The notes: generated by a model not told the origin, from the letters alone. A stretch of 64,000 nucleotides of DNA from Candidatus Spongiisociaceae bacterium (GCA_965262915.1 OZ253564.1:3552001-3616000); one strand, 5' to 3'; shown: positions 1 to 17,334, numbered from the stretch's first letter. A program made the numbers and translations.

Positions 1-647
1 ACTCTGCTGTGAGATTCGGCGTGAGCCATCGCGTCCTGCCGGCCCTGCGCCATCAGATAGTCTCGCTTCCAGCTGATCAGTCCATCATGCTCGGCATGGA
101 CCATCGCGGTCATTCCCGCTCTTCGGGCGGCAGCCAGTAGTTCAACCAGATCGGACCCGGCGAGCCGGAGGCGCTCGTAGGTCATGAAGACCTTGAGCGA
201 CGTGATCCCGAGGTGGGCAACCTCTGCCAGGTCCGCAGCCGTGTGATCATGTAGCTCGGTAGGAATAAGATGCAGCCCGTAATCCACCATTGCTTCAGCT
301 TCCGCCCGCCGCATAGCCTCGGCAATCGCATCGCGGACGTTCGTACCGCGATGCTGGGCGGCAAAGGCCATGACCGTTGTCGTCCCGCCGAAAGCCGCCG
401 AGCGGGTCCCGGAGGCGAAGTCATCAGCGGTCGGTACCCCGGCCCCGGAAACCTGCGCCAGGTGGCAATGAGGGTCTACTCCACCGGGGAACACGTACTT
501 CCCCCCCGCATCGATCTCACGCTCACCGGACCGTATGCCGTCGCCGATGGCCTCTATCCGATCCCCGACGATCGCCAGGTCGGCTGCTATCACCCCGTCC
601 TCGGAGACCACACGACCGTTCCGCAATACGAGATCTGGCGTTAGCAC
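1..647 (-). CDS. hydA: Dihydropyrimidinase / D-hydantoinase, 3' end truncated by window edge
   Basis: Missing from the ORF track; translated by hand from GTG at 647: VLTPDLVLRNGRVV...IDAGGKYVFPGGVDPHCHL...TADDFASGTRSAAFGGTTTV...GITSLKVFMTY...VHAEH. These are the typical cyclic amidohydrolase motifs. Confidence 0.9.
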   Translation of the reverse strand, partial: MLTPDLVLRNGRVVSEDGVIAADLAIVGDRIEAIGDGIRSGEREIDAGGKYVFPGGVDPHCHLAQVSGAGVPTADDFASGTRSAAFGGTTTVMAFAAQHRGTNVRDAIAEAMRRAEAEAMVDYGLHLIPTELHDHTAADLAEVAHLGITSLKVFMTYERLRLAGSDLVELLAAARRAGMTAMVHAEHDGLISWKRDYLMAQGRQDAMAHAESHSR

Positions 648-649
648 CT

Positions 650-1582
650 CTATCCGACGATGTCCACGGTCGGGATCCCTGTCGCCGCTTCGAGTCTGAC
701 AAGCAACCGGTCGAGTTCTTCGTGGTCGACTCGACCCAGAACGGGAGCGGGAAACCGCGCACGTGCGGTGCGAATGGCTTTGCGACGGCGCAGGAGTTCC
801 TTCCGGACGCTGATGCCCATGCGGAACTCGTGCCGATTGATTGGCAGGTACAGGTCGTACAGGTCTTCGGCCTCATCCGGTCTCCCCAAGGCATGCATGG
901 CGATGACGCGCGCCAGCACGTCGGGGAATGCGAAGCCGGTCATCGCGCCGTCGGCGCCGCGCGCCAACTCCTGGGGTAGGTGGATGCCGTTGTTGCCCGT
1001 CACGATCGTCACACGCCTCTGTCCGGCGGACTCCGCGTTGCGGATAGCCGTGAGCTTGCCCAGACCGGGTTCGTCTTCAGCCTTGAGCATCGTCACCGTC
1101 GGGCACCTTTCGACAATCAAGCGCCAAGCGGTCGGGGAGATGTGGACTCCGTTCGCCTTCGGGAAGTCTTGAACACAAATCGGAATACTGCCCAAGGCTG
1201 CTGCGGCAGCCTCGAAGTAGCCGGCAACCTTGTGGTCGCCGGCCAAACCGGCTAGAGGCTGGAGAAGTACACCGGCGGCGCCGACGCCCATCGAGAAGGT
1301 TGCCAACGACCGGACACGGGACAGCGACGAATCCGACACGCCCACGATGACAGGAACCCTCCCGTCGACGGCAGCGATGGCGCTTTCGGCTACGAGTCGT
1401 GATTCCGCGTCGGTCATCCGATTGGCCTCACCCATCACGCCGAGCAGGGCGACTCCGCTCGAGCCACACGCAACATAGAAATCCATCAAGGTCTGGATGG
1501 ACGACGGGTCGATGCTGCCGTCTTTGTCCAAGGGCGTTACAGATATCGCTATAAGGCCCGATGTCGGCATGGAATCGATCAC
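650..1582 (-). CDS. Dihydrodipicolinate synthase / N-acetylneuraminate lyase family class I aldolase
   Basis: VTPLDKDGSID, LLGVMGEANRMT, GRVPVIVGV and Schiff-base Lys in MLKAED. Start placed at GTG 1582, overlapping the upstream TGA (GTGA). Confidence 0.85.
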   Translation of the reverse strand: MIDSMPTSGLIAISVTPLDKDGSIDPSSIQTLMDFYVACGSSGVALLGVMGEANRMTDAESRLVAESAIAAVDGRVPVIVGVSDSSLSRVRSLATFSMGVGAAGVLLQPLAGLAGDHKVAGYFEAAAAALGSIPICVQDFPKANGVHISPTAWRLIVERCPTVTMLKAEDEPGLGKLTAIRNAESAGQRRVTIVTGNNGIHLPQELARGADGAMTGFAFPDVLARVIAMHALGRPDEAEDLYDLYLPINRHEFRMGISVRKELLRRRKAIRTARARFPAPVLGRVDHEELDRLLVRLEAATGIPTVDIVG

Positions 1583-2247
1583 AGGTCCGGTCCTTTCTCG
1601 GTGCGGGCATCCCGGAGGGCTGAGGCGGCGAAGGTAACAGCGGCCTGGCACGGCTCGATCACGGGCAGCCCTAGGTCGCTCTGGAGCCGGGAGCGGAGAT
1701 GGGTCATGCCTGTGCATCCCAACACGACCACGTCCGCACCGGATTCCGCCAGCTGCCTGCCGGCTTCGAGAACATCCTCGTAGGCTTCCTCACTCTCCAG
1801 ATCGAGCACGCCCCGCCCGCTGGCAACGTCCGCGACGACTCTCGCCGTGACTCCGATCCGATCCCAGTAGCGGTAGTGGCGGGGCACCGATGCGTCGACG
1901 GCGGAGATGACTCCGACATTGCGCCCGCGTGACATTGCGGCCAGCACGGCCGATTCGGCTATTCCGAAAACGGGCTCCTCGAGGGTTGCCCTCATCTCGC
2001 CGATCCCAGGGTCGGAGAAACAAGCGACCACGTAGGCATCTGCCGGATGCTCTACGGCAATTTCGATCATGGGCTCGACCGCGGCCGCAACGTCGTCGTC
2101 GGATTCGATAGCGGGCGGCCCGCCTGGCGTGGTGACTACCTGTATCTCGACGCCCAAGTCTTCGGCGAGACCCCTCACCGCGTCATCGACCTGTATCGAG
2201 ATGCGCTCGGAGCTGTTCGGATTTACCAGGGTGACTCTTCCAAACAT
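1579..2247 (-). CDS. Asp/Glu/hydantoin racemase family protein
   Basis: LVNPNSS, ACFSDPG, VFGIAES and LGCTGM, giving two catalytic Cys. Start at ATG 2247. Confidence 0.9.
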   Translation of the reverse strand: MFGRVTLVNPNSSERISIQVDDAVRGLAEDLGVEIQVVTTPGGPPAIESDDDVAAAVEPMIEIAVEHPADAYVVACFSDPGIGEMRATLEEPVFGIAESAVLAAMSRGRNVGVISAVDASVPRHYRYWDRIGVTARVVADVASGRGVLDLESEEAYEDVLEAGRQLAESGADVVVLGCTGMTHLRSRLQSDLGLPVIEPCQAAVTFAASALRDARTEKGPDL

Positions 2248-2257
2248 CGGAGGCACC

Positions 2258-3028
2258 TTACCTGATCTGGGACTCATGCCATCGGAGGAACTTCGACTCC
2301 GCAAGGACGGAAAGAGCGAACATCGTGATCCCGAGCGCCGCGGACCCGACAATGGCTACGAACAGATCCGCCGTCCGCAGAGTCGACTTCGAGATGAGTA
2401 TGACATAGCCCAGGCCCTGGGTAGATGACACGAACTCGGCCACGATCGCGCCGATGACCGCTGCCGGAGCGGCGATCTTGATGCTGGACAGGAGATACGG
2501 AAGCGCGAAGGGTAGGCGGACGCGCAGGAAGACGAACCGTTCCGTTGCGGCCAGAACCTTCATCAGGTCCAGAGCGTCCCTATCTGCGGACCGCAAGCCG
2601 ATGGCGGTGGTGACCGTTATGGGGAAGAACGAGATAAGAAACGCGACCGCTATCTTGGGCGCCAGTCCGGTGCCGAGCCATAGCACTAGTACGGGCGCGA
2701 TTGCGACGATCGGCGTAACCTGAATGATGACCAGATAGGGCATCATCATGCGCTCGAGTGTACGAACGTAAGCCATCACTGCTGCGAGAAATACACCGAG
2801 CGCGAGACCGATTGCGAAACCCAGCAATGCCTCGTAGGCCGTTCTCCATGTATGGAAAGCGAATCGTTGCGGCTTGTCCAGGAAAGCGTCGAGGATCGCA
2901 GACGGAGCCGGTAGCAGGAACTTGGAGATGTCGAGAGCCTGAACAGCGCCCTCCCAGACAACCACGACCAAGCCGGAGAAGATCAGCGGTAGCCAGCGCA
3001 GGAACCGGCTTCTTGTGAAGACACTCAT
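2258..3028 (-). CDS. ABC transporter permease, NitT/TauT family
   Basis: LLPAPSAI, TPIVAIAP, FFPI and GAIVAEF motifs; about six TM segments. Confidence 0.92.
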   Translation of the reverse strand: MSVFTRSRFLRWLPLIFSGLVVVVWEGAVQALDISKFLLPAPSAILDAFLDKPQRFAFHTWRTAYEALLGFAIGLALGVFLAAVMAYVRTLERMMMPYLVIIQVTPIVAIAPVLVLWLGTGLAPKIAVAFLISFFPITVTTAIGLRSADRDALDLMKVLAATERFVFLRVRLPFALPYLLSSIKIAAPAAVIGAIVAEFVSSTQGLGYVILISKSTLRTADLFVAIVGSAALGITMFALSVLAESKFLRWHESQIR

Positions 3029-3041
3029 CCGTCGCGAACTC

Positions 3042-3908
3042 TCATGGTCCCCGTAGTTCGAACTTGCCGCCGATGCTCGTACTCTCGGCAGTCTCGGCCT
3101 CCTGTTGGATCCTATCCCTGACGCGGTTTGTGACCTCCAGAAACTCGATCGTCGCCCGCAGGTCCAAGGGCCGAGGCCGCTCGAAAGGTACGTCCACCGT
3201 GCCCGCTACACGGCCCGGCCGAGCAGACATAACGATGACCCGATCTGCCAGGAATACGGCCTCCGTTAGCGAATGGGTCACGTACAGGACGGCTGGCCGG
3301 GTAGCCGTCCAGATGTCCTGAAGGGCCAGGTTGAGTCGGTCGCGGGTGATCTCGTCGACCGAAGCGAACGGCTCGTCGAGCAGGAGAACCGATGGCGTGA
3401 GCATCAGCGAGCGCGCCATCGCGGCGCGTTGCCGCATGCCCCCCGAGCACTCGCGGGGCAGCGCGTCTTCGAACCCCGTCAGCCCTACGAGATCGACCAA
3501 CTCCTGCGGCTGCACGGGCGGATCCTTGATACCGGCCACCTGCAGGGGCAGGCGGACATTGTCGATGACGGTGCGCCACGGGAGCAGAGCAGGCTGCTGG
3601 AACATGAACCCGACTCGACGACTCCGGCGCGCCTCCTCCGGCGTGACTCCGCAAACGGAGAGCTTGCCCCGGGTGTAGCCCGGACCGTGGAGATCGGCAA
3701 CAGACCGAAGAAAGGTCGACTTGCCACAACCTGAAGGGCCGATGATGGCGACGAACTCCGCCGGCATCACGTCGAGGGTGAAAGGACCCAGGGCATGAAC
3801 CGATGCCCCGCTCACGGTCGGGTACACACAGCCAGAGTCCACGGCGGAGACCGCCGCTCCCGTGACAAGAGAGCGGCGGTCTCCGCCGTTCGAGCGATCA
3901 GCGCTCAC
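3042..3908 (-). CDS. ABC transporter ATP-binding protein, NitT/TauT family
   Basis: Walker A GPSGCGKS, signature CSGGMRQR, LLLDEPF, VTH. Confidence 0.93.
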   Translation of the reverse strand: MSADRSNGGDRRSLVTGAAVSAVDSGCVYPTVSGASVHALGPFTLDVMPAEFVAIIGPSGCGKSTFLRSVADLHGPGYTRGKLSVCGVTPEEARRSRRVGFMFQQPALLPWRTVIDNVRLPLQVAGIKDPPVQPQELVDLVGLTGFEDALPRECSGGMRQRAAMARSLMLTPSVLLLDEPFASVDEITRDRLNLALQDIWTATRPAVLYVTHSLTEAVFLADRVIVMSARPGRVAGTVDVPFERPRPLDLRATIEFLEVTNRVRDRIQQEAETAESTSIGGKFELRGP

Positions 3909-3927
3909 TGCATCCGTCCGGTGAGAA

Positions 3928-4941
3928 CTATGGCATCACCGGGGAGTCGGGTAGGTAGTCGTTCGTGTACACCTCGCCGACATCGAACTGGTCGTCGATG
4001 AAGCCGAACCCGACGAGAACGTCGAGGCTGGGCTGCCAGGTCGAATCATCCATGTACAGCAAGCCGTTGTCACGCTGCAAGTCCGACACCCAGAACGCGT
4101 GCAGGGCGGGTGCTTCCACCTCTATGATGTCTCTTTCTACATCCGGGTAGGTCTCGACCATGAGGTCGATGGCATCAGAGGGGTTCTGCAACGCCCATTG
4201 CATCCCGCGTGCATACGCACGCACGAACCCCTTGACAATGTCGGGGTTCTCAGCAACGAACGAGTCGCTGGTGATGAGGGTCTGTCCGATGGACTCAACG
4301 GATTCGGCCATCCAGAAGGTGACCGCCGGCTCACCGAACTCAACTGCGGCAAGTGCCGGAACGAGCGTGAGAAAGTCCGGGAAGCAGTCAACCAAGCCGG
4401 TGAACAGCACCACCGGGTCGAATCCAACCTCGACCTCTTCGGTTAGACCGGTCAGGTTATTGATGTTGCGGTATGACTCCCAGATCGTGTTGTAGCTCTC
4501 GAATCCTTGGAAGCCAACCTTGACATTCGCCAGGGTTGACGGGTCGTTCCCGTCGAGGCCGCGGTCAGGACGACATATCAGACCGACCGGACTAAAGGGC
4601 TGTGTCACACCGACTGCGATGACGGGAAGATCGGCCGCGTGGCTCAACAGGACCGACGGGCCCGGCCCGACGGTTATGTCGTGCTCTCCCAACCCAACCG
4701 ATTGCACTTGGTCGAACTCACCACCCGGCGTTATCTCGAGCTGGATCCCTTCTTCGGCGAGCCAACCGAACTTCTCGGCTGCCAAGACCGGAACATCACC
4801 CGATGTGGGGAACCAGTCGAAGGCGAATCTCACGGTTTGGAGGGCCGCAGGTTCTTCTTCCTCCTCAGCACAGGCAACGGTTAGTAAGGTCAGCGCCAAC
4901 AGAACTACGACCCATTGACCTAGGCGACTGTCTCGTCTCAT
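3928..4941 (-). CDS. ABC substrate-binding lipoprotein, NMT1/THI5-like
   Basis: Lipobox LTVAC, FAFDWFP, and C-terminal VYTNDYLP; adjacent to a NitT/TauT ATPase and permease. Confidence 0.88.
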   Translation of the reverse strand: MRRDSRLGQWVVVLLALTLLTVACAEEEEEPAALQTVRFAFDWFPTSGDVPVLAAEKFGWLAEEGIQLEITPGGEFDQVQSVGLGEHDITVGPGPSVLLSHAADLPVIAVGVTQPFSPVGLICRPDRGLDGNDPSTLANVKVGFQGFESYNTIWESYRNINNLTGLTEEVEVGFDPVVLFTGLVDCFPDFLTLVPALAAVEFGEPAVTFWMAESVESIGQTLITSDSFVAENPDIVKGFVRAYARGMQWALQNPSDAIDLMVETYPDVERDIIEVEAPALHAFWVSDLQRDNGLLYMDDSTWQPSLDVLVGFGFIDDQFDVGEVYTNDYLPDSPVMP

Positions 4942-4978
4942 TGCTCCTCCTCTTCGTATTCTGCTTGGCCGGCGGCGC

Positions 4979-6025
4979 CTATTCGGAGCCGGTCGAGATC
5001 ACACCAAGTTCTTCGAGGTTCTTCAGCGACTGATCGGCGGGTACGGATGTGTCCATCCAATGTTTCATGGGCGAATCCAGGAATGAGTTTGCGGGATAGA
5101 AAACGACATCTCGAAACATCTCTGCGAAGCTCTCGACTCGGATTCGAAGCAAGCCGTTCGCCATTGAGTTCTCGGATCTTGCGGTACGCAACGCAGCGGT
5201 ATCCAGCATGGCGCTCACGCCCACGGTCTCGTTCGGGGAGGTGTCGAGGGAAACGGTGTTACCCCTGAAGTCGACAATGCGTGACGACCCTCCGGTGACC
5301 GGGTCAGGGACACCGTCGTCGGAGAAGCCGATGGGGCCGGCCACGTTGGCCGATACCACATACATCATGTTGGCGGCCGCCGCCGTCACCTTCGCCGCCT
5401 CTTCAGCCTCGCTGATCGGCTCGTTGGTCGGGTGAACCAGGATCTCGGCGCCCCGCAACATCAACATTCTCGACGCCTCCGGAACCATTATCTCTCCACA
5501 GGCGAGCATGGCCACCCGGCCGAGCGACGTGTCGACCACCGGCCACAGGCCCTCGACCCCGTATCGGGCGATGTAGTCATCGAGGAAGTCGTGCGGGGAT
5601 ACCCATTGGGCGGTATGGATGCGGCGATAGCGGAGCACGACTTCGCCCGAAGGGTCGATGAAGAACGACGTGTTGAAAAAACGGTCTCGCCACTCCAGAT
5701 CGGCCTCGAACTGGTTTCCGCCGATGTGCACACCGAAAGACCGTGCAAGTTCCTGAAGAGGCTCGGTAATCGGCCCCGGCACCGGATAGCAGGCCTTCTC
5801 GATCCAGTCGGCGACGGGCTCACCCTTCGGGGGTCCCTGGAATGCGAACTCCGGCAGTACGAGCAGCGCCGGAGGCGGGTCCTCCAGCATTGCCTCGTTG
5901 ATCATCCGGCGTGCGCAGTCGAGATTCCTCTGGACGATCTCCCATGCCTCTGCTCTGGTGGACACCTTGCGAGCGATCTCGCTCGGCATCTGGATACAGG
6001 TCGCTCGCCACTGGCCCGGCATCAT
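4979..6025 (-). CDS. Nitrilase-related carbon-nitrogen hydrolase
   Basis: VLPEF (Glu), FNTSFFIDPSGEVVLRYRRIH and LACGE (Cys). Start ATG 6025 overlaps the upstream stop (ATGA). Confidence 0.88.
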   Translation of the reverse strand: MMPGQWRATCIQMPSEIARKVSTRAEAWEIVQRNLDCARRMINEAMLEDPPPALLVLPEFAFQGPPKGEPVADWIEKACYPVPGPITEPLQELARSFGVHIGGNQFEADLEWRDRFFNTSFFIDPSGEVVLRYRRIHTAQWVSPHDFLDDYIARYGVEGLWPVVDTSLGRVAMLACGEIMVPEASRMLMLRGAEILVHPTNEPISEAEEAAKVTAAAANMMYVVSANVAGPIGFSDDGVPDPVTGGSSRIVDFRGNTVSLDTSPNETVGVSAMLDTAALRTARSENSMANGLLRIRVESFAEMFRDVVFYPANSFLDSPMKHWMDTSVPADQSLKNLEELGVISTGSE

Positions 6026-6312
6026 GTTCCTCCTGAAACAGGCAAAGATTCGATTATTTCGCGAGCCTGATGAATCCCGAAGGCGACCGGTGGCCGGGGG
6101 CGGGGAGGCTCCTCGTCTCGCGAGAGAAGGTCGAGCGTGATGATCGCTCGGCGGCGGTCGAGTTGATCCATGGCTTCTGTGAGAAGGTTCGACTCGGCGC
6201 TGCAGTCCGTGAGTTCTAGGTATGAGGCGCGGAACCTCCATCTGCCATCGGAACCCTCAACCGGCTCGACCGAAAAGGCGAGCGGCACAGCGAGGTACTC
6301 CTCGGGCGTCAT
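6022..6312 (-). CDS. Small HicB-fold-like protein (no HicA partner)
   Basis: 96 aa; WRFRASYLELTDCSAES...EAMDQL...EEPPRP resembles the HicB N-terminal pattern (a.vPdLpGc.t.G.t.eEA...ge.iP.P). ATGA-coupled on both sides. Confidence 0.65.
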   Translation of the reverse strand: MTPEEYLAVPLAFSVEPVEGSDGRWRFRASYLELTDCSAESNLLTEAMDQLDRRRAIITLDLLSRDEEPPRPRPPVAFGIHQAREIIESLPVSGGT

Positions 6313-7625
6313 GAGTCAATCCCTCCGGCAGCGATGACTGCCTCCGGAGTCCCGCCCTCCATCATTGCGCGGACATCCGCGACCCAGTCGGCGCTTCGAG
6401 GCAGTACAACGGAGACACCCGGGGCGTCGTAGCCCGACCCGCTCACGCCCACGACCGGCGTACCGGATGCGGCATCGGCAGCAGCCTTGAGCAGAGCCTG
6501 GCGGGTCGCGATGACACCACCGTCGGTGCCGACCAGTGTCTCCTTCGAGCGGTCGTATGCAGGGCCCATGGAGGCGGTCGCCATGTCGTCCTGCTCCTGA
6601 TTGCCGGTGATACCGCTCCAGATGACGCCCGAGTTCTGGGCAGTCCGATCTATCAGGTAGTCGTTGGCGAGATTGCGAATCGCCATGTAGCTACCCGGCT
6701 GCTTCTGAGCGTAGATGCCCCCTCTACCCGCCGCGTACAACTCCAGCTCCCCATCGGTGAGGTCGCGGTCCGGGTGCCACGACAGGCCGTATACCCATGT
6801 GGTCTGCTCGTCGACCGGCACCCACGCGTGGATCTTGCGAACTTCTGCCGTGCTCTCGGCGGGGACAACGGTGTAGCACGGTGCCAACCAATGGTTCACC
6901 CTCCAGTAGTAAGCATCTTCCCTGAAGTTCCGCCGGGCACCGATCAGCAGCCCGTACTCGGTCTCCACAACGTCGAAGTGGGGAGCCGTCTCCTCGAGGA
7001 TGTTCCTGACCAGCGGATGATCGGGGTCCTCGAGGAGTTCCTCGCGATGCAGGTACGGGACGTGACTCGAGTCGATATCGGCTTCCAATGCTTGAAGCCA
7101 GTGGCACGGTTGTAGTCGCTTGCTTACGTACCGGCCGGCATCGCCCACCTTGAGGTATCCGAGATCCGGCAAGGGAGGTGGAGGAGACTCTTCTCCGAGG
7201 TACGCCCAAACAATCCCACCCGCTTCACGGGTGGGATACGCGGTTTGAGCTACCTCGGGCCGGCCTACGAGGCCGGGACTGGTCGGGTTCTCGATACAGT
7301 CTCCGTTGACGTTGAACTTCCATCCGTGATAGAGGCATTGCAGTCCCCGATCAGCGTTTCGACCGAAGAAAAGTGACGAACCGCGGTGCGGACAGAACTC
7401 GTTCAGTAGACCTGGCGTTCCGTCGGAGTCGCGGAAGGCCACTAAAGGCTCGCCGAGCAGCTTGGTCCTGATGGGCGGTGAGTCAGGATCCGGGATCTCT
7501 TCAGTCAGGCAGGCAGGAAGCCAGTAGTTCCTCAGGGCGATGCCCATCGAGGTGCCGTTGGTAACCCCTGCCAGTGTGCGATGCTCTGCCGCGGTAAAGC
7601 GGAAGACTCCATTCAACGCTTCCAT
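6309..7625 (-). CDS. Rieske non-heme iron oxygenase alpha subunit (phthalate 4,5-dioxygenase/LigXa-like)
   Basis: Rieske motifs CPHRG and CLYHGWKF; mononuclear Fe site DIDSSHVPYLH and QDDMA. Confidence 0.92.
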   Translation of the reverse strand: MEALNGVFRFTAAEHRTLAGVTNGTSMGIALRNYWLPACLTEEIPDPDSPPIRTKLLGEPLVAFRDSDGTPGLLNEFCPHRGSSLFFGRNADRGLQCLYHGWKFNVNGDCIENPTSPGLVGRPEVAQTAYPTREAGGIVWAYLGEESPPPPLPDLGYLKVGDAGRYVSKRLQPCHWLQALEADIDSSHVPYLHREELLEDPDHPLVRNILEETAPHFDVVETEYGLLIGARRNFREDAYYWRVNHWLAPCYTVVPAESTAEVRKIHAWVPVDEQTTWVYGLSWHPDRDLTDGELELYAAGRGGIYAQKQPGSYMAIRNLANDYLIDRTAQNSGVIWSGITGNQEQDDMATASMGPAYDRSKETLVGTDGGVIATRQALLKAAADAASGTPVVGVSGSGYDAPGVSVVLPRSADWVADVRAMMEGGTPEAVIAAGGIDS

Positions 7626-7639
7626 CGATCTCCTTGTAA

Positions 7640-9055
7640 CTACCCCTGGGCCACAACCCGATCGCTCGTCTGTTTCTCCGAAACCTCGGGCCCCGGTCCA
7701 CCAGGTAGCGAGGTCTTTCGCGCGACATCGTTCATGACATCGATCGCGGGCACCGTCCTCGCGTAGAGAGCAGCCGGGATCGCCGTGAGATAGGGAAAGT
7801 CGGACTCAGGGGGCGGCTGTATGCCATCCGCTTCGAGAGCACGGGCCGCTGCGATCAGGCTCCGGCGAACATGCACGATCGGTGCGTCGCTCGAAACCAG
7901 TCGCTCCTCTGTACGGTCGAGGATCGACCCCATGCCCTCGGTCACGGCACGGTCCTGCAGCCAGACGCTCCCGATTCCCGAGAACAGATTGCTGCGCTGG
8001 ACATCCCGATCCAAGCCATAGTCGTTTTCTCGATTGACCAGGGGATAGAACTCCGACTGCGGCTCGACATTCTTTGGCGCATAGCCATCCGGAGAGACAT
8101 GTGCATCTTGGCCGGTGAGCTGATAGTTGATTACGTCCGTAGAAAGAGGCGCATCGGTGTCGTAGTGAATGCGCCAAACGATGGTGGTGTGATCGTCTCT
8201 TGGAAACCACACATTACATTGAGCCGCGGCGTCTACATCACTCGGTACCCCCGCGTAGAACGGCATGATGAAGTGGTTGAATCGGTAATAGAACGTGCTG
8301 GGGCCGGCTTCTCGTCGCGCGGTCGAGAAAAGACCGTATGCTGTTGGCATCACGGTGATATCGGGCTGGGGATCCCTGTTCCAGTACATCGTCTCGAACT
8401 CTGCCGTCAGAACGTCATCCTCCGGCTCGGGTGCGAACTCCTTGCCCCTCATGGCCAGACGAGTATCGAACTCACGATAAGAGGCCACAGATCCATGGAG
8501 AAAAGAAATGTGAGAGGGATCGAAGTCACCCTCCATAGCCTGGGCGTAGTTGCAGTTCAATAGCTGCTTGGTGACGAGACGATGATCCTCAGGTATGCTC
8601 ACCCAATCCAGGGGTGGTAATTCGCCGGGTAACTGGTCCTTCGGACCCATAAAGACCCAGACAATTCCGAACGCCTCACGAGTAGGATAAGAAATACTCC
8701 TGATCCGTCGTCGAAAGTCGGACTGGCTAGGCACATTGGGCATGGCCATACATACCCCGTCCACACTGAACTTCCACCCGTGGTATATACATGTCAGGCC
8801 CGATTCTTCATTGCGCCCGAAAAAGAGGGGAGCTCGGCGGTGTGGACACAACGCTTCAAGGATTCCGATGCGGCCTTCCGTGTCGCGAAATGCAACCAGG
8901 TCTTCTCCGAGCAGACGGAGGCGGATGGGTCCCGAGTCCGGCCCGGTGAGCTCCGAACTGAGAACTGCCGGCAACCAGTAACGTCGCATCAGGTTGCCCA
9001 TCGGGGTGCCTGGGCCGACGCGTGTCAGGATCCGGTTGCGCTCTTGGCTGAGCAT
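7640..9055 (-). CDS. Rieske non-heme iron oxygenase alpha subunit (phthalate 4,5-dioxygenase/LigXa-like)
   Basis: MLSQERNRILTRVGPGTPMGNLMRRYW start, CPHRR, CIYHGWKF, DFDPSHISFLH and QDRAVTEGMG. Confidence 0.93.
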   Translation of the reverse strand: MLSQERNRILTRVGPGTPMGNLMRRYWLPAVLSSELTGPDSGPIRLRLLGEDLVAFRDTEGRIGILEALCPHRRAPLFFGRNEESGLTCIYHGWKFSVDGVCMAMPNVPSQSDFRRRIRSISYPTREAFGIVWVFMGPKDQLPGELPPLDWVSIPEDHRLVTKQLLNCNYAQAMEGDFDPSHISFLHGSVASYREFDTRLAMRGKEFAPEPEDDVLTAEFETMYWNRDPQPDITVMPTAYGLFSTARREAGPSTFYYRFNHFIMPFYAGVPSDVDAAAQCNVWFPRDDHTTIVWRIHYDTDAPLSTDVINYQLTGQDAHVSPDGYAPKNVEPQSEFYPLVNRENDYGLDRDVQRSNLFSGIGSVWLQDRAVTEGMGSILDRTEERLVSSDAPIVHVRRSLIAAARALEADGIQPPPESDFPYLTAIPAALYARTVPAIDVMNDVARKTSLPGGPGPEVSEKQTSDRVVAQG

Positions 9056-9212
9056 CGGAGCACTCCCCTCGTCCTGCTCATATCACCGAGTGAGTCTGGC
9101 ACCGGTAGGGAGTGTTGGCAAGCGGTCCGACTCCAAGACTCCTCCGTCTCGGGAGACCGCTGATCCGTAGTCGCTCTGGGCTGCTTGAGCCATAAGCACC
9201 CACCGAGGAGTC

Positions 9213-9674
9213 GCCAGGTGCCAGGTGCCAGGTGCCAGGGGTTGGGTGTCAGGTGCCAGGTGCCAGGGGTTGGGTGTCAGGTGCCAGGTGCCAGGGGTTG
9301 GGTGCCAGGGTGCCAGGTGCCAGGGGTTGGGTGTCAGGTGCCAGGTGCCAGGGGTTGGGTGTCAGGTGCCAGGTGCCAGGGGTTGGGTGTCAGGTGCCAG
9401 GTGCCAGGGGTTGGGTGCCAGGGTGCCAGGTGCCAGGGGTTGGGGTCAGGTGCCAGGTGCCAGGGGTTGGGTGTCAGGTGCCAGGTGCCAGGGGTGCCAG
9501 GTGGGTTGGGTGCCAGGGTGCCAGGTGCCAGGGGTTGGGTGTCAGGTGCCAGGTGCCAGGGGTTGGGTGTCAGGTGCCAGGTGCCAGGGGTTGGGTGTCA
9601 GGTGCCAGGTGCCAGGTGCCAGATGCCAGGTGCCAGGTGCCAGGGGTTGGGTGTCAGGGGCCAGGTGCCAGGTG
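9213..9674 (+). repeat. G-rich heptamer tandem array with a 28-bp higher-order unit (GGTGCCA GGTGCCA GGGGTTG GGTGTCA)n
   Basis: Directly visible: ~460 bp built almost entirely from three heptamers, with occasional 1-bp variants and no unique spacers. Confidence 0.97.
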
Positions 9675-9819
9675 ATCGATCGGCCGGCTTCACAACAACG
9701 AACGGCTCATTTGGAGATATGGATACCTAAGCAATCAGGGGTAAGACGCCTCTATCAATAATAAAGCAGCAGTACAGAGTATACAACTATTCTGACAAGC
9801 GATCTCCATGCTATTCGGT

Positions 9820-9829
9820 GTGTATACAC
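9820..9829. promoter_or_regulatory. Palindrome GTGTATACAC, candidate GntR-family operator in an AT-rich divergent promoter region
   Basis: Perfect 10-bp palindrome; a related GTATACAA lies at ~9779-9786. It sits just upstream of the -35 box. Confidence 0.45.
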
Positions 9830-9852
9830 GTATATAATTGATTGTAGAACAC

Positions 9853-9881
9853 TTGACAGACTAGAAGCCTAGCCGTATAGT
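9853..9881 (+). promoter_or_regulatory. Sigma70/SigA-type promoter TTGACA-N17-TATAGT
   Basis: Consensus -35 (9853-9858), 17-bp spacer and -10 TATAGT (9876-9881), followed by GGAGG and ATG 9918. Confidence 0.8.
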
Positions 9882-9917
9882 CGGCTCACTTCTCCGCCTA
9901 CCGACTGGAGGGAAGAA

Positions 9918-11162
9918 ATGGGTGGAATACATCCGTCGGAACAGAGCAAGATGAGAAGGCCCTCCTTTAGTTGTCAGGCGCTGGTCCGACCAATCCGAAT
10001 AGTGGCCCTTCTTCTCGTGCTCGTCTTGGGGGCCTGTGCGTCAGAAACTGCCGATGACGAAGGACCGATCGTCATCGGACTGGCGATCGGCCTGACGGAC
10101 TTCATGGCGGCGTACGACCTGCCGGCGCTGAACGGCGCCCAGATCGCCGTGGATGAGATCAACGAGGCCGGCGGCGTGCTGGGTCGAAGCTTGGAAATCG
10201 TCACCGCAGACACCAAGTCTGACATCGATCAGGGAACAGTGGCCGGCCAGGAGGTCATCGACCAGGGCGCCCACGCGATGATCGTGTCCCCCGACTACAA
10301 CATGGGTGGCGGCGCCGCCCGAGCTGCTCAGGATGCAGGGCTGGTCGTCTTCTCATCCTCGGCGGGCTCACCGCTGTTCGGGATCGAAGGTATTGGGCCC
10401 CTTGCGTTCACGATGGGGATAGCCGCCACAACCGACGGCGCGGTCGCGGCCGAGTGGGCCTTCGAAGACCAGGGCTTCAGGACGGCGTATCTCCTGCTCG
10501 ACGACATCGCCGACTACAACAAGGACTACTGCCGGGCGTTCGAGACCCGCTGGGTCGAGCAGGGCGGCACCATCGCCGGCCAGGACCAGTTCAACAACAA
10601 CGATGCGTCGATCGCCAGCCAGGTGACGAGGATCAACGGTCTTCCGGAGGCGCCGGACATCATCGCCCTCTGTTCCTTCCCGCCGGGCGGCGCGGTCGCC
10701 ACCAAGCAACTCCGTGACGGAGGCGTGGACGCCCCGATCGTGAGCAACAACGGATTCGACGGGGATTTCTGGTACAAGGACTCGATGCCGGATCTCGCCG
10801 ACTTCTACTACACGTCGCCGGTTTCCTTCTGGGGGGACGATCCGAGCGCCGAGGTCGGGGAGTTCCTCCGCAAGTATCTCGAGCGACATGGGCAGCCCCA
10901 AGCCGTCAGCGCGATCGGTGCATACGCAGCGGTGTACGCACTGGCTGAAGCGATAGAAGATGCGGGCACAACCGATGGCGAGGCCGTTGCCGGGATCCTC
11001 GAGCAGTTCGACGGAAGGAACGTCGGTGGCCTCAACGTCACGTTCTCTCCCGACCTACACATCGACAAGGACCGGGAGTTGCGCATACTGGAACTCAATG
11101 CCGGTGCCCATCAGATCGTGTCGATACGTTCCGCCAAGGGCCAACCACCACTGTTCGGATAG
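9918..11162 (+). CDS. Branched-chain amino acid (LivJ/K-type) ABC substrate-binding lipoprotein
   Basis: Lipobox LGAC and AQIAVDEINEAGGVLGRSLEIVTADTKSD, the PBP type 1 signature. Confidence 0.9.
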   Translation: MGGIHPSEQSKMRRPSFSCQALVRPIRIVALLLVLVLGACASETADDEGPIVIGLAIGLTDFMAAYDLPALNGAQIAVDEINEAGGVLGRSLEIVTADTKSDIDQGTVAGQEVIDQGAHAMIVSPDYNMGGGAARAAQDAGLVVFSSSAGSPLFGIEGIGPLAFTMGIAATTDGAVAAEWAFEDQGFRTAYLLLDDIADYNKDYCRAFETRWVEQGGTIAGQDQFNNNDASIASQVTRINGLPEAPDIIALCSFPPGGAVATKQLRDGGVDAPIVSNNGFDGDFWYKDSMPDLADFYYTSPVSFWGDDPSAEVGEFLRKYLERHGQPQAVSAIGAYAAVYALAEAIEDAGTTDGEAVAGILEQFDGRNVGGLNVTFSPDLHIDKDRELRILELNAGAHQIVSIRSAKGQPPLFG

Positions 11163-11393
11163 GGGACTCGTGACGATCAGGAGCAAGAACCCGGCGCCCC
11201 TCCGGCGGCCGTCGGGTTCGCCCCCGATCCGACCTTGATCAGCGTCCCCTCACAATCACGCCGGTAGCGGCGTACCGCTGGGACGTCGGCGCATATGCCG
11301 GCAATGCACCAGCTAGCGGCAACGAAGCGCCGCCCATCGAGCGTGCTCGTACCGGTGTTCCGCCGGGTCTGCGCACTCGGAGGAGCGGGGCCG

Positions 11394-12134
11394 TTACGTT
11401 CCTTGCCTGGAGAGACCCGACTCCCGGTGCGCGGCCTTGGCTGCGGAGATGATCTCGTCGAGGGTGCCCAAGCGCTTGTGATAGTCCATGAAGTTGTCGA
11501 CCCACCGGAGGAACCGGAACTGTCCATTAGCAACAGCCGGGTGGGACCCGTCCCGAGATAGCACGATCAGATCCCCGTTCGGTTCGGTGAGATATTCACA
11601 GGCCTCAGGTACGTGAAGGCCGGCATCGACCAGTAGCCCATCCGCCGACCCGTCGATGACCACACCTGCTCCCTCGTCGTTGTCCCGGACCGGAACATAC
11701 TGTGCGTTGGGGAATCGCTGTCTGACGATGTCTTCCTGCAACGCGCCCGAGACACCGGCCAACCTGCGCGCCCCCCGGAGCCAGGCCAGCCCTCCTCCGG
11801 CCCACTCCTTGCGCACGAGTACGACGCCCTCGTACTCCAGAAGTACGCCGTCACTGAACATCACGGACAAGGCCCGGCGGGGCAAGTTCGTGTGCTTCAT
11901 CAGGATGTCGACCCGACCCTCTACGAGGCCGTCAAGCTGGTCCTCCCACTCCATGACGACGAAGTGGGCTCTCACGCCCAACTCCTCGGCCATCAGCCGC
12001 GCAACGCGAGCCACGACACCGTCGGGTTCGCCTGTATCCGGGTTGATGAACTGCTCGAAGGTGAGATCCCAGCGAGCGGCCACCCGCAGTACACCTCGTC
12101 GAACGATCTCGTCCAGGACACAAGAATCAGACAT
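11394..12134 (-). CDS. Solute-binding family 3 (polar amino acid / PheC-like) domain protein with no signal peptide
   Basis: LDEIVRRGVLRV, DPDTGE-like NPDTGEPDG, LVEGRVDIL and FLRWVDNF. ATG 12134 overlaps the end of the upstream gene. Confidence 0.75.
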   Translation of the reverse strand: MSDSCVLDEIVRRGVLRVAARWDLTFEQFINPDTGEPDGVVARVARLMAEELGVRAHFVVMEWEDQLDGLVEGRVDILMKHTNLPRRALSVMFSDGVLLEYEGVVLVRKEWAGGGLAWLRGARRLAGVSGALQEDIVRQRFPNAQYVPVRDNDEGAGVVIDGSADGLLVDAGLHVPEACEYLTEPNGDLIVLSRDGSHPAVANGQFRFLRWVDNFMDYHKRLGTLDEIISAAKAAHRESGLSRQGT

Positions 12135-13203
12135 GACCAACTCCCTTCTCCCTCGGGTCTTGATCCATACCGATGATGCAGACAGGCTCACCACCGTTCC
12201 GCGTCGGGGTGGAGAAAATCATGAGAACCCACCCCTCCAGTGGGCTCTTCACCACCGTCCGCGGAGAGCCGAACCGGTCGAGGAAAGTCCCGAGCGGGGT
12301 TCCCTGCTTCACCCGTTGGCCGGGTTCTACATCCCGCAGAAAGTAGCCGGCGGAGTCCGCTGTTACGACGTACATACCGAAAACGTCGATCTGTCGATCA
12401 TTCACCACGGGCTCACCGGGGTACATCCCCATGTGCTTCAGAACGTTGAAAAGGCCGCGTAACTCCATTTCCACCAGATCCGGATCCAGCCTTCCGGCTC
12501 CTCCCACCTCAAGCTGGATCGCCGGTATGCCGTTGAGGGATGCGTATCCGATGTTGTTGCGGGCTACTTGGAGGCCTGTCCAGACGGTCTTTCCGTCGTC
12601 ACTCACGCCGGAGAGACCGTCGATGCCTGAACCCATGATGTTTCGGAACTCGATATCGAAGAGGGCTGCAAGCCGGCGGCTTTTGTCATCCGTCTCCGGG
12701 TCCCCCAGTTCGGGAACGACTACATGTAGTGGCACCTCTTCGTAGTGATCCCCGCTGTGGAGGTCCATGTAGGTAGAACTGCGCCCGATGATCTCAGCCC
12801 CAATTCTCGCTGCGACCTGCGATGCGATCGAGCCGAAGGGATCTCCGGGGAACGACTGGTTGATGTTCACGCTGTCGATGGGCAGGAAGAACGATGTTCG
12901 CAGCTCAAGCGCTCTTGGATTGGCACAGACCACGCCGATGAGATCCCCGGAGAGCTCCTTGATATCAAGCCTCGATGCGAGTTTGGGGACCGCGATCTGT
13001 CCGGTGAACTCGCCGGCGTGAACTCCCGCGGTCAGAGCCAGCGTCGGTCCGGGGTTCTCCCCTCTCACCACCCACACCGGAACCGTGAGCGGTCCGGCTA
13101 CCGTCTCTGCGACGACTAGGTCACACCTGTACCGCTGCGGGCGGGAAGCGGGGACCCTATCGAGCGTTTCCACGATTCCGAGATTCGTCATGAGTGCTTC
13201 CAT
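12127..13203 (-). CDS. Succinylglutamate desuccinylase / aspartoacylase (M14) family protein
   Basis: TAGVHAGE, NINQSFPG, DLHSG and LEVG, plus a C-terminal barrel-sandwich segment. Start at ATG 13203 after GAAGGGG; an alternative is 13191. Confidence 0.88.
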   Translation of the reverse strand: MEALMTNLGIVETLDRVPASRPQRYRCDLVVAETVAGPLTVPVWVVRGENPGPTLALTAGVHAGEFTGQIAVPKLASRLDIKELSGDLIGVVCANPRALELRTSFFLPIDSVNINQSFPGDPFGSIASQVAARIGAEIIGRSSTYMDLHSGDHYEEVPLHVVVPELGDPETDDKSRRLAALFDIEFRNIMGSGIDGLSGVSDDGKTVWTGLQVARNNIGYASLNGIPAIQLEVGGAGRLDPDLVEMELRGLFNVLKHMGMYPGEPVVNDRQIDVFGMYVVTADSAGYFLRDVEPGQRVKQGTPLGTFLDRFGSPRTVVKSPLEGWVLMIFSTPTRNGGEPVCIIGMDQDPREKGVGHV

Positions 13204-13279
13204 CAATGCCCCTTCGTGTGCAGCCGCCAGCAGCCGGATCCGGTCTCCTCTTGACCCGGATGTCGGGCCGGCAACGCTC

Positions 13280-14035
13280 TCATTGTCCACCCAGATAGGC
13301 AGCAATGACGTCGACATTGCTGCGAACCTCGTCGGGGCTCCCGACGATCAGGGTCTTGCCGTGGTCGAGTACCTGCACCGTATCGCAGACCTGCATGACG
13401 ACCGCCATGTCGTGCTCGATCAGGACGATCCCGATGTTCCACCTGCGACGGGCTTCGTCGATGAGGCCTGCGAGATCGGAACTTTCCAGATCGTTCAGAC
13501 CCGCCGCCGGCTCATCGAGGAGCAGATAGTCGGGCTGGGCGGCCAGCGCCCTCAAGAAGCCGATCCTTCGCTCGTCTCCCAACGGGAGTGTCGAAGCGCG
13601 CCGGCCGCCCTTGCCGCCGAGCCCGAGTGACTCGAGCAGCTCTTCGGCCGTGTTCCGTGCCTGACGCCGGCTGATCCGGTTACGGGCCAGCGCTCCCAGC
13701 TGGATGTTCTCCGAAGCAGTCAACTCTCCGAACACTCGCATGCCCTGGAACGTGCGAACGAGGCCGGCCCGAGCGATCTGGTGCGGAGAGCGACCCGTAA
13801 GATCCTTGCCTTCCAGCGTAACCGTGCCTGCGTCGGACGGTTGGAATCCGCTCATGACATTGACCAAAGTCGTCTTGCCGGCTCCGTTCGGCCCTATGAG
13901 TCCCAGGATGTGACCACGCTCAACCCCCAGATCGACGCCGTCGAGTGCTTGGAGCCCATCGAATCTGACCGACACCCCGAGAGCGACCAAGCCCGACTCG
14001 TGCGAGCCTCCCGTGCGGTCCGACTCTGCGGTCAT
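13280..14035 (-). CDS. livG: Branched-chain amino acid ABC ATP-binding protein (LivG-like)
   Basis: GPNGAGKTT, RTFQ, LLLDEPAAGL, IEHDM and VIAAYLG. Confidence 0.88.
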   Translation of the reverse strand: MTAESDRTGGSHESGLVALGVSVRFDGLQALDGVDLGVERGHILGLIGPNGAGKTTLVNVMSGFQPSDAGTVTLEGKDLTGRSPHQIARAGLVRTFQGMRVFGELTASENIQLGALARNRISRRQARNTAEELLESLGLGGKGGRRASTLPLGDERRIGFLRALAAQPDYLLLDEPAAGLNDLESSDLAGLIDEARRRWNIGIVLIEHDMAVVMQVCDTVQVLDHGKTLIVGSPDEVRSNVDVIAAYLGGQ

Positions 14036-15945: not shown

Positions 15946-15952
15946 CGCTTAG

Positions 15953-16051
15953 GAGGGTGCTGAGAAACCCCCCGTTGGCCCGACGGTCGATGACAAAATG
16001 CCACGTTAGCGGACAGCGGGCCAACCATTCTCACCGTTATTCAGCATTCTC
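15953..16051. mobile_element. MITE copy A (99 bp), IS5/IS1182-like ends
   Basis: Terminal IRs GAGGGTGCTGAGAAAC and GTTATTCAGCATTCTC, flanked by TTAG and CTAG. The interior is homologous to the copy at 51116-51215. Confidence 0.7.
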
Positions 16052-16936
16052 CTAGACCGTGCGGTTCTGGAGTCGGGCACCCATTATGCCGTCGGGTTTG
16101 GCGACGAGGATGATCACGACGACAAGAAAGACCAAGGTATCTCTAAAAGACCGGAGACCGAGCGGGAGACCGGCTTGAAGTGCCACAGAGGTCGCCCCTA
16201 GCAGGTACGCTCCCAGAACTGACCCGGGTAGGCTGCCGAGTCCCCCGATGATCACTGCGATGAACGCCGCCAGCACCGGTGTAAGGCCGATCGAGGGGTG
16301 GATAAGACCGGTCTGAGCCGAGAAGAGAATCGCTCCCACACCGGCGAGAACACCGCTAATCGCGAAAGCCCCGGCGATGACCCGATCTGCCTTGATTCCC
16401 AAAATGCGCGCTACGAAGAAGTCCTCAGCTGCTGCCCTCATCTGGAGTCCGAATACTGTACGGCTGAGAAACAGAACGAGCAAGAGCAACAGCACCGTGG
16501 TCACCCCAATGGAAACCAGGTCCAAGCGCCGGATGGCGATGTCACCGATGAAAATACGTCCGCGTAACCCTTCGAGAATCCCCACGCTGCGCGGAAGAGC
16601 CCCGACGGTTACCACTGCAAGGCTCTGGAGAAAGAAGCTGACAGCGAAAGACGTTACGAGAAGCGTCTCGATCGCCGCGCCCCGCACACGGCGGAAGGCG
16701 ACCCTCTCGGTTGCGAGGGCCAGCAGTACAACGATGAAGATTGCTGCACCGATACGGATCGCTGTACTCGGGACGGTGATGAAGACAAGCACATAGCCAC
16801 CCGCCATGACGAGTTCCCCATGGGCGAAGTTGATCAGGCTCATCACACCGAAAAGCAACCCGACCCCTAGCGCAAACAGGGCGTAGATACTCCCTAGGCT
16901 GAGCGCGTCGAGAAGGAGTTGTACAAGATAAGCCAT
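16052..16936 (-). CDS. livH: Branched-chain amino acid ABC permease (LivH-like)
   Basis: LGSIYALFALG, INFAHGE, GLQMRAAAED and IIGGLGSLPG. Confidence 0.92.
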   Translation of the reverse strand: MAYLVQLLLDALSLGSIYALFALGVGLLFGVMSLINFAHGELVMAGGYVLVFITVPSTAIRIGAAIFIVVLLALATERVAFRRVRGAAIETLLVTSFAVSFFLQSLAVVTVGALPRSVGILEGLRGRIFIGDIAIRRLDLVSIGVTTVLLLLLVLFLSRTVFGLQMRAAAEDFFVARILGIKADRVIAGAFAISGVLAGVGAILFSAQTGLIHPSIGLTPVLAAFIAVIIGGLGSLPGSVLGAYLLGATSVALQAGLPLGLRSFRDTLVFLVVVIILVAKPDGIMGARLQNRTV

Positions 16937-17261: not shown

Positions 17262-17332
17262 CCGTCTGTCTGTAGAAGCCGTCCGGCATGCGCCGGCAAG
17301 CAGAGCACGGCGAGTTGCTTTGTAGACAGACG
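17262..17332 (-). terminator. Imperfect inverted repeat immediately downstream of the FAD oxidoreductase gene
   Basis: CGTCTGTCTGTAGAAGC ... GCTTTGTAGACAGACG. It could be a terminator or a mini-element remnant. Confidence 0.35.
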
Positions 17333-17334
17333 TT

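Follow-up and report, generated by a model that had tools for sequence, protein, structure and literature searches.

A twelve-gene operon pairing two Rieske oxygenases with an Arg-type CN-hydrolase in a Candidatus Spongiisociaceae bacterium: a candidate route for nitrogen-containing organic acids

The first 9,055 positions of a 64,000-nucleotide stretch from a Candidatus Spongiisociaceae bacterium (G000:C1:3552001-3616000, from a genome that consists of one contig of 5.06 Mb; the whole stretch is called the window below) hold ten genes of a genuine, patchily distributed catabolic operon that is both oxidative and hydrolytic. Two more genes lie beyond the left edge, in DNA that was added (as L002) to read the distal end, and the twelve, all co-oriented on the minus strand and running leftwards from 9055, span about 11.9 kb. 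We favour, with reasonable though limited confidence, the view that they form a single catabolic operon for an organic acid that contains nitrogen: the compound would be imported, oxygenated and then broken down by hydrolysis of several C-N bonds. The basis for this view is observed: the genes present, their arrangement as an operon, their co-conservation and the residues of the active sites. Among the products is a CN-hydrolase of the nitrilase superfamily in which the catalytic Lys is replaced by Arg.

The operon and its enzymes

Genes were called from open reading frames (ORFs), Pfam domain searches, NCBIfam profiles scored against their cut-offs and PDB sequence matches, and the junctions were read directly (Table 1). 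The eleven junctions from the first Rieske gene (R1) to the second amidohydrolase gene measure 14, -4, -4, 37, 19, 13, 10, 8, 2, -4 and 1 nucleotides (nt), and the close packing of the twelve, which share one orientation, never lie more than 37 nt apart and overlap by 4 nt at three junctions, argues for a single operon. Two of the overlaps are ATGA and lie inside the window, where they couple the small gene S to the second Rieske gene (R2) upstream and to the CN-hydrolase gene downstream; the third, GTGA, joins the hydantoinase stop to the start of the SDR (short-chain dehydrogenase/reductase) gene outside it. Shine-Dalgarno-like purine-rich stretches precede the chosen starts. In four cases the longest ORF extends past the likely start; starts were placed at 6025 rather than 6241 for the CN-hydrolase, at 2247 for the racemase and at 1570 for the DHDPS-like protein. 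The distal end abuts a convergent NAD-kinase-like gene. An earlier reading of the window, made from the sequence only, had reported ten co-oriented genes here, and ORFs, Pfam and NCBIfam bear out their place and their families, a 'HicB-like' label apart; of the several ATGA and GTGA couplings that it listed, the two ATGA are in the window and the single GTGA falls just outside. It had also seen no reductase or ferredoxin gene, which is true of the full twelve-gene operon as well.

Table 1. Genes of the operon and its upstream region (positions are those of the window unless L002 or G000:C1 is given)
Feature	Position	Strand	Basis
R1, Rieske + LigXa_C oxygenase, 471 aa	7640-9055	-	Pfam
R2, Rieske + LigXa_C oxygenase, 438 aa	6309-7625	-	Pfam
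S, small protein, 96 aa	6022-6312	-	ORF
CN-hydrolase (nitrilase superfamily), 348 aa	4979-6025	-	Pfam CN_hydrolase 3.3e-28
Substrate-binding protein, NMT1/THI5-like, NitT/TauT-type importer	3928-4941	-	Pfam NMT1 1.4e-23
ABC transporter ATPase	3042-3908	-	Pfam ABC_tran 2.7e-24
ABC transporter permease	2258-3028	-	Pfam BPD_transp_1 8.4e-27
Hydantoin-racemase-like racemase/epimerase, 222 aa	1579-2247	-	Pfam Asp_Glu_race 6.2e-49
DHDPS-family protein (class I aldolase/dehydratase), 306 aa	650-1570	-	Pfam DHDPS 1.6e-21
Dihydropyrimidinase/D-hydantoinase, first 215 of 468 aa in window	1-647, on to G000:C1:3551241	-	TIGR02033
SDR	L002:16474-17244, outside window	co-oriented	adh_short_C2 2e-46
Second amidohydrolase	L002:15141-16472, outside window	co-oriented	Amidohydro_1 1.4e-22
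Upstream non-coding region with tandem array	9056-9917	no strand

The CN-hydrolase is a clear member of its superfamily by Pfam (99 bits against a cut-off of 23.2) and departs from the Glu-Lys-Cys triad at the Lys position, Glu59 and Cys176 being kept. In the alignment its YRRIH stands opposite the YRKIH of D-carbamoylases and of PH0642, which gives Glu59-Arg135-Cys176. The replacement is a property of a whole group: R134, R135, E59 and C176 are invariant in 15/15 orthologues, Arg and Cys occur in 120/120 of the closest clusters, and the Arg is found in every syntenic locus. Among 158 aligned segments, taken from the 150 best 50%-identity representatives of its relatives, 76 are of the Lys/Cys type, 22 Arg/Cys and 15 Arg/Ser, the remainder being degenerate; the residue at Cys+2 is Glu where the Lys position has Arg, and mostly Asp where it has Lys. 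The best solved relative is a D-carbamoylase, at E 8e-13 over about 125 residues, and the NCBIfam profiles for formamidase, N-carbamoylputrescine amidase, nitrilase and others give at most 58 bits against cut-offs of at least 133; at this curated level the protein is not assigned to the N-carbamoyl-D-amino-acid hydrolases or beta-ureidopropionases. Nothing relevant to an Arg variant of the nitrilase triad was met in the main-text literature searched, supplements and subscription journals lying outside its scope. Sister enzymes at 35-38% identity carry the Lys-to-Arg change together with a Cys-to-Ser change of the nucleophile in 7/7 loci (L099-L105) from genomes of the window's phylum (G153, G244, G098, G070, G023, G084 and G126), and these loci are without the operon. 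Many other relatives (P0134, P0135, P0139 and others) are proteins of 560-745 aa with two tandem CN-hydrolase domains, mostly with one domain without Cys, Lys or both, and one locus (L116) has an adjacent pair of CN-hydrolase genes, one of the Arg and one of the Lys type.

R1 and R2 belong to the alpha-only phthalate family of Rieske oxygenases, both having the CxH...CxxH motif and the His, His and Asp iron ligands. R1 matches the Pfam Rieske and LigXa_C domains at 3.7e-16 and 2.7e-27, R2 at 5.3e-17 and 6e-27; the two are 37% identical over 399 aa (BLASTP) and are the sole LigXa_C oxygenases in the genome. The cluster motif CPH...CIYH and the iron motif DPSHISFLH of R1 are intact and were aligned with those of its best PDB matches, 7FHR (2.8e-83), 9INA (2.2e-81) and 7FJL (3.3e-69), which are RO_CH34 of Cupriavidus, an isophthalate dioxygenase and the phthalate dioxygenase PDO_KF1, respectively (entry names as resolved from the accessible portions of PMC12445078 and PMC8649396). 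R2 has CPH...CLYH and DSSHVPYLH at the positions aligned with R1. Weaker matches of R1, between 1e-11 and 1e-20, are to the demethylases DdmC and NdmA/B and to carbazole dioxygenase. In PDO_KF1 Arg207 and Arg244 are substrate-binding residues, the latter binding the substrate carboxylate, according to the part of the source available (PMC8649396). The Arg of FYYRFNH in R1 aligns with Arg244, and R2 has the same Arg in YYWRVNH; the Arg207 position is Tyr in R1, which does not have the full residue pair of PDO_KF1. As for RO_CH34, the same portion describes its substrate as not established and its gene context as uninformative (PMC8649396).

Orthologues of R1 (54-93% identity) come first in all syntenic loci long enough to include this position; distinct orthologues of R2 (59-84%) are found in L111, L112, L113, L114, L129 and L130, and in neither L003 nor L131. 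A PDR-type reductase is expected for this family. No cognate reductase gene (FNR-like plus plant-type ferredoxin) is present among the twelve genes, and the genome holds one PDR-type reductase (FAD_binding_6, NAD_binding_1, Fer2), at G000:C1:3023124-3024110, about 530 kb away beside LigD genes; in an alphaproteobacterial locus (L123) such a reductase adjoins the Rieske gene.

The importer is of the NitT/TauT type. Its binding protein finds its best PDB match in ThiY (3IX1, 2.4e-15), and its N-terminus, LLALTLLTVAC, looks by eye like a lipoprotein signal. The proposal that NMT1-like binding proteins bind pyrimidine-type ligands is weakened here, as it comes down to that one weak ThiY match. The ATPase gives SaoA, TauB and NtrCD types as its best NCBIfam matches, and the permease SaoP- and SsuC-like ones, all of them under the cut-offs. 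The racemase is well placed in its family (Asp_Glu_race, 167 bits against a cut-off of 31); it matches putative hydantoin and allantoin racemases at about 1e-18 to 1e-20, its PDB matches are 3QVJ (8.2e-20), 2EQ5 and 5LFD, and the Cys residues of ACFSDPG and LGCTGM, which we take to be catalytic, align with those of 3QVJ and 2EQ5. The DHDPS-like protein scores 75.2 bits on TIGR00674 (dapA) against a cut-off of 206.15, and its sequence places it in the wider DHDPS family and not with DapA; its PDB matches are 3DZ1, which has no assigned function (4.1e-60), and L-2-keto-3-deoxyarabonate (KDA) dehydratase (7.4e-25).

The full-length hydantoinase reaches 478.6 bits on TIGR02033 (cut-off 393.25) and is a dihydropyrimidinase/D-hydantoinase by that measure. 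The genome has three hydantoinases above the equivalog cut-off, along with 15 CN_hydrolase matches and 11 cyclic-amidohydrolase matches at E<=1e-30. The two other dihydropyrimidinases each lie beside or near a CN-hydrolase (G000:C1 ~4,090,814-4,093,068 and 4,783,900-4,789,138), so the copy in the operon is a specialised extra one. Two other CN_hydrolase matches lie inside the window, at ~28200-28895 (+) and 45047-45868 (-). The second amidohydrolase is closest to Xaa-Pro dipeptidase and Arg carboxypeptidase Cc2672, with imidazolonepropionase, ochratoxin amidase and phenylurea hydrolase as further relatives. The ORF as listed has 395 aa; the protein probably has 443 aa and a CTG start, because the frame is open up to the SDR stop, the candidate CTG (L002:16472, 1,528 bases left of the window) lies 6 nt past an AAGGAG and 1 nt past that stop, and the codon is TTG in the congener G807. 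Homologues on the metagenome contigs L111-L114 carry a matching N-terminal segment.

S has close homologues at 74-95% identity and same-position homologues at 35-38% in L112-L114; neither it nor two of its homologues matches Pfam at E<=1. Its AF2 model (mean pLDDT 84.6) finds no PDB match at E<=0.001 with Foldseek, where the best E is a weak 0.39 and the HicB-type entries 5YRZ_C, 2DSY, 6U0I_B and 2YZT are within the top 20, and none at Z>=5 among 48,161 chains with VIA-align, where the best Z, 4.7, is to unrelated helical chains. Clusters annotated HicB_lk_antitox and UPF0150 are among its language-model neighbours at 0.90-0.92, likewise a weak lead. There is no HicA-like gene among the annotated ORFs of the window, and a predicted complex of S with the CN-hydrolase (alignments A1 and A2) scored 0.00 in a run without controls. 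Possibly, S has a HicB/UPF0150-like fold; given the weak Foldseek rows and the language-model neighbours, the 'HicB-like' label is a lead and not a result.

Distribution and surroundings of the locus

The CN-hydrolase gene occurs in 5/7 other species of the genus, in 0/21 genomes of the family's other genera and in 0/32 of the order's other families. All twelve genes are found in the same order in the congener G807, and the first ten, again in the same order, run up to the contig end in G812. Outside the genus, the metagenome contig L111 has R1-R2-CN-hydrolase-binding protein-ATPase-permease-racemase-amidohydrolase at 60-70% identity, and L112 and L114 have R1-R2-S-CN-hydrolase-amidohydrolase, as does L113 from R2 on. 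In one alphaproteobacterial order two of 401 sampled genomes, G782 and G793, carry an orthologue of the CN-hydrolase; none was found at E<=1e-70 in 400 further sampled genomes of G782's phylum. G782 (L122) assembles within 14 kb SDR, cyclic amidohydrolase, DHDPS-like (45%), SDR, GntR, Rieske, CN-hydrolase (49%), NMT1 binding-protein and amidohydrolase genes, and G793 (L123) has an NMT1-type ABC (ATP-binding cassette) system followed by a PDR-type reductase, a Rieske oxygenase, the CN-hydrolase (46%) and an amidohydrolase. Within the window's phylum, the CN-hydrolase as anchor retrieves 28-38% homologues only, of the Arg/Ser or Lys types, with the operon in 0/12 contexts. Anchoring the synteny on R1 in genome_contigs gives 79 loci, one from a close relative and 78 with homologues at 38-50% identity in unrelated contexts. 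On a contig (L031) of a Stellaceae metagenome-assembled genome, a phthalate-dioxygenase-like Rieske gene, with a DHDPS-family gene and then a bicupin gene behind it, faces a canonical Lys-type CN-hydrolase gene and a dihydropyrimidinase gene whose product is 47% identical to that of the operon.

In the congeners, the locus lies between a DAO/CoA-transferase block and NAD-kinase/GcvP genes. Here, an insert of about 8.3 kb (9056-17334) separates R1 from the DAO-family gene (17335-18477), its direct neighbour in four congeners, and contains a tandem array, a Peripla_BP_6 binding-protein gene (+), an SBP_bac_3-like ORF, an AstE/AspA (DoeB-like) gene and Liv-type ABC genes. The array (9213-9674) repeats a 28-nt unit 15.8 times, with a 7-nt subunit GCCAGGT in about 65 copies and a G-rich plus strand. 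This array occupies the space that separates the operon from the divergent binding-protein gene at 9918; G812 and G807 do not have it upstream of R1, and its 16-mer occurs twice more on the minus strand, at 42270-42292. In this genome the operon promoter must lie within 9056-9917, a region without a sigma-70-like match on the minus strand, in scans for sigma-70 sites and terminators that performed at chance level. Beyond the NAD-kinase-like gene, L002:6581-13747 carries on the minus strand genes for GcvP subunits, a second DHDPS-family protein, a 3-hydroxyacyl-CoA dehydrogenase and a 577-aa Fer2_4 + FAD + BFD protein that resembles sarcosine oxidase alpha. As to expression and habitat, two RNA libraries with the label sponge metagenome contain short contigs that match five operon genes at >=95% identity, a sign that is weak since DNA carry-over is possible, and the absence of such contigs from other parts of the operon carries no information; 16 runs from seven studies hold at least half of the sampled words of the stretch.

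One pathway or several

Several observations weigh against a single pathway for all twelve genes. S and the DHDPS-like, hydantoinase and SDR genes are missing from L111, where the racemase gene adjoins the second amidohydrolase gene, and L112-L114, which keep S, are without the DHDPS-like, hydantoinase, SDR, transporter and racemase genes. Within the genus, G811 (L131) has only R1-S-CN-hydrolase-racemase-DHDPS-SDR, G810 (L132) a truncated CN-hydrolase gene with an in-frame TAG followed by racemase-DHDPS-SDR, with an ISL3 transposase gene nearby, and G806 (L003) R1-S-CN-hydrolase followed at the contig end by what by eye is apparently an IS3 transposase gene; the insertion sequences and truncations in L132 and L003 imply that the locus decays easily. 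A second copy in G793 (L121) reads penicillin amidase-CN-hydrolase-amidohydrolase, with no Rieske gene within 10 kb, and S or an Arg-type CN-hydrolase is found in none of the 78 loci of distant R1 homologues. No operon gene has a close orthologue among characterised enzymes in the PDB or NCBIfam, and a reductase, a regulator, a ring-cleavage dioxygenase and a formaldehyde-handling gene are all absent from the twelve. Moreover, with its Lys replaced, the CN-hydrolase might be inactive or serve another role. The gene set is modular, so the twelve genes do not have to act together in a single pathway.

From the contexts in congeners, metagenome contigs and alphaproteobacteria it follows that the Arg-type CN-hydrolase and the amidohydrolase are the stable pair, which is usually accompanied by an NMT1-type importer and by Rieske oxygenases, one or two in number. 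Together with the Rieske oxygenase(s) this pair makes up the evolutionarily stable core; the transporter and the racemase, DHDPS-like, hydantoinase and SDR genes count as accessory, add-on modules. The sequence-only reading had made co-conservation of the genes a test of its proposal: a core and modules do recur elsewhere, whereas the full set is not conserved as a whole, and the core, in addition to the Rieske oxygenases and the CN-hydrolase that were in view, includes the amidohydrolase that lies outside the window and was not seen. With core and modules co-conserved and nothing characterised close to them, neither outcome that was to refute the proposal has come about, and the operon is not a set of close orthologues of a characterised pathway; the nearest characterised proteins are RO_CH34, the isophthalate and phthalate dioxygenases and, at 8e-13, D-carbamoylase.

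A mosaic locus, in which two or three unrelated functions are co-transcribed, would explain this modularity directly, and we regard it as an unlikely but serious alternative. It would join a Rieske/CN-hydrolase/amidohydrolase unit to an ordinary hydantoin or dihydropyrimidine unit made of the hydantoinase, racemase, DHDPS-like and SDR genes. The absence of the hydantoinase, DHDPS-like and SDR genes from L111 and L112-L114 agrees with it, as does the retention of racemase-DHDPS-SDR in G811 and G810 without hydantoinase, transporter, R2 or second amidohydrolase; the two other hydantoinases above cut-off, each near a CN-hydrolase, indicate that hydantoinase units exist alone. However, the lower genes are wedged between the core CN-hydrolase and amidohydrolase genes, 1-10 nt apart except where two of them overlap by 4 nt, the same families are regrouped in the alphaproteobacterial L122 in a different order and orientation, and L031 also unites Rieske, DHDPS, hydantoinase and Lys-type CN-hydrolase genes.

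Taking the single operon as the preferred reading, the substrate would best be read as a carboxylate-bearing, amide- or ureide-containing nitrogen compound. Its class, its heterocyclic nature, the chemistry and the order of the steps we infer as follows. The compound would enter through the NitT/TauT-type ABC system with its NMT1-like binding protein and would be hydroxylated or dealkylated by R1 and R2, with electrons from a reductase encoded elsewhere. The dihydropyrimidinase/hydantoinase and the Xaa-Pro-dipeptidase/imidazolonepropionase-like enzyme could then act either by opening the ring of a cyclic amide or ureide or by amide cleavage, and the Glu-Arg-Cys CN-hydrolase would take off, as ammonia, the carbamoyl, formyl or amide group so formed. 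The two-Cys hydantoin-racemase-like enzyme may channel the wrong stereoisomer into the pathway, and the Schiff-base DHDPS/KDA-dehydratase-like enzyme and the SDR may act on the carbon skeleton. The intact Rieske and iron motifs, the Arg244 equivalent, both racemase Cys and the CN-hydrolase Glu and Cys present in all orthologues are consistent with functional enzymes. Uptake, oxygenation and ring opening of an N-heterocycle had been proposed for the locus: uptake, oxygenation and C-N hydrolysis are indeed brought together in one operon-like unit, while the N-heterocycle is a presumption, an acyclic or aromatic amide being possible. Utilisation of ectoine (EutA/DoeB) or ergothioneine (ErtD), the standard reductive pathway for pyrimidines and degradation of creatinine/N-methylhydantoin were considered and dropped, there being no NCBIfam match above cut-off, and the enzymes described in the accessible part of a report on the dipicolinate dip cluster do not match those of the operon (PMC11472048).

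Relation to known systems and significance

No described pathway with this gene combination was met in the literature searched, in keeping with the initial impression that it matches none. Partial likenesses are several. The hyu clusters of the 'hydantoinase process' combine a D-hydantoinase, a hydantoin racemase and an N-carbamoyl-amino-acid hydrolase, and all three families, with a transporter, are present in the operon, D-carbamoylases being the nearest solved relatives of its CN-hydrolase. However, that enzyme is distant (8e-13) and has Arg for Lys, the transporter is an ABC system, and the operon adds two Rieske oxygenases, a DHDPS-like enzyme, an SDR and a second amidohydrolase. Membership of the hyu type is further contradicted by L111, L112-L114 and L131, where the hydantoinase is missing and the CN-hydrolase kept; the hydantoinase is the least conserved of the whole gene set. 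Purine catabolism by the Klebsiella hpx genes involves the Rieske-type HpxDE and the allantoin racemase HpxA, and so resembles the operon as an N-heterocycle pathway with a phthalate-family Rieske oxygenase, a hydantoin-racemase-family enzyme and ring-opening amidases; unlike it, the operon is without urate-oxidation and allantoate-degrading genes, and no NCBIfam equivalog of the hpx pathway was matched. The 25-gene lumichrome/riboflavin operon of Nocardioides simplex follows the same logic in the portion of its description available, with hydrolytic pyrimidine opening, urea-group hydrolysis and a Rieske dioxygenase in one operon, but has a P450, a xanthine oxidase, a thiamine pyrophosphate (TPP)-dependent decarboxylase and a catechol dioxygenase, none of which is present here, and an alpha/beta Rieske oxygenase with its own ferredoxin and reductase that has no counterpart here (PMC12746152).

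The Rieske enzymes themselves invite two further explanations, which are weighed together with the systems that suggest them. With the phthalate-family oxygenases (PDO_KF1, 9INA, RO_CH34) R1 and R2 share the Rieske/LigXa_C architecture, the cluster and iron ligands, the Arg244 equivalent and the lack of a beta subunit. Since the closest characterised relatives of R1 are isophthalate and phthalate dioxygenases and the carboxylate-binding Arg is retained, the substrate could be an aromatic acid amide, imide or amino-acid conjugate, from which the hydrolases free a phthalate- or isophthalate-like aromatic carboxylate for dihydroxylation by R1/R2 as true ring dioxygenases, with the SDR as diol dehydrogenase; the likeness of the second amidohydrolase to carboxypeptidase-, ochratoxinase- and phenylurea-hydrolase-type amidases, and the coupling of the CN-hydrolase to a penicillin amidase in L121, would fit. 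We hold this to be improbable, because Arg207 of PDO is Tyr in R1, a decarboxylase or ring-cleavage dioxygenase is absent from every cluster examined, the core clusters L112-L114 are without any dehydrogenase, and RO_CH34 turns over neither phthalate nor isophthalate in the part of the source available (PMC8649396). Likewise, in contrast to phthalate systems, the operon has no diol dehydrogenase, decarboxylase or protocatechuate gene, and its neighbours are amide hydrolases.

The methylxanthine N-demethylases NdmA and NdmB (PDB 6ICK, 6ICL) offer the other model, an adjacent paralogous alpha-only pair with a shared reductase, and R1 and R2 would then each strip a different N- or O-methyl group before the hydrolases dismantle the product. 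That R1 and R2 are such a pair, sharing an unlinked reductase, that their orthologues remain distinct across distant lineages, and that LigXa_C and VanA_C domain matches and PDB matches to DdmC, NdmA and NdmB belong to demethylases, all speak for demethylation. The relation is nonetheless weak (~1e-11 to 1e-13 for the pair; NdmA ~7e-13, NdmB 1.7e-11, DdmC 4.6e-14), far weaker than that to the ring dioxygenases; the operon is without counterparts of NdmC, NdmD and NdmE and without a formaldehyde-detoxifying gene, and L003, L131, L122 and L123 have one Rieske gene only. Demethylation thus seems to us to have little probability.

A bolder version of the single-operon reading can be advanced only tentatively, and we would not bet on it: that the Arg-type CN-hydrolases are active with a new Glu-Arg-Cys variant of the triad and that, together with phthalate-dioxygenase-like Rieske monooxygenases and the amidohydrolase, they constitute an undescribed mobile route for N-heterocyclic carboxylates. 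The route would mineralise its substrate in three stages, a hydroxylation of the ring that yields a lactam or ureide, hydrolytic opening and deamidation; it would be horizontally mobile, and would serve sponge symbionts, as well as soil and marine bacteria, as a source of nitrogen and carbon.

The kind of operon, Rieske plus hydrolase catabolism, is well known, and the novelty lies in the combination and in the Arg-type CN-hydrolase clade, neither of which was found in the literature searched. If the CN-hydrolase is inactive or the operon a mosaic, the locus would be an ordinary accessory catabolic island. If the preferred reading is true, the operon would represent a conserved but rare enzyme set for a catabolic route that the literature searches did not turn up, the substrate of which could be fished with the binding protein, and a whole clade of the nitrilase superfamily would have Arg in place of a supposedly indispensable Lys, which would put the strictness of the Glu-Lys-Cys rule to the test. 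It would also mean that a sponge-associated lineage, the genome of which is already rich in hydantoinases and CN-hydrolases, has been gaining, rearranging and losing a nitrogen-scavenging operon.

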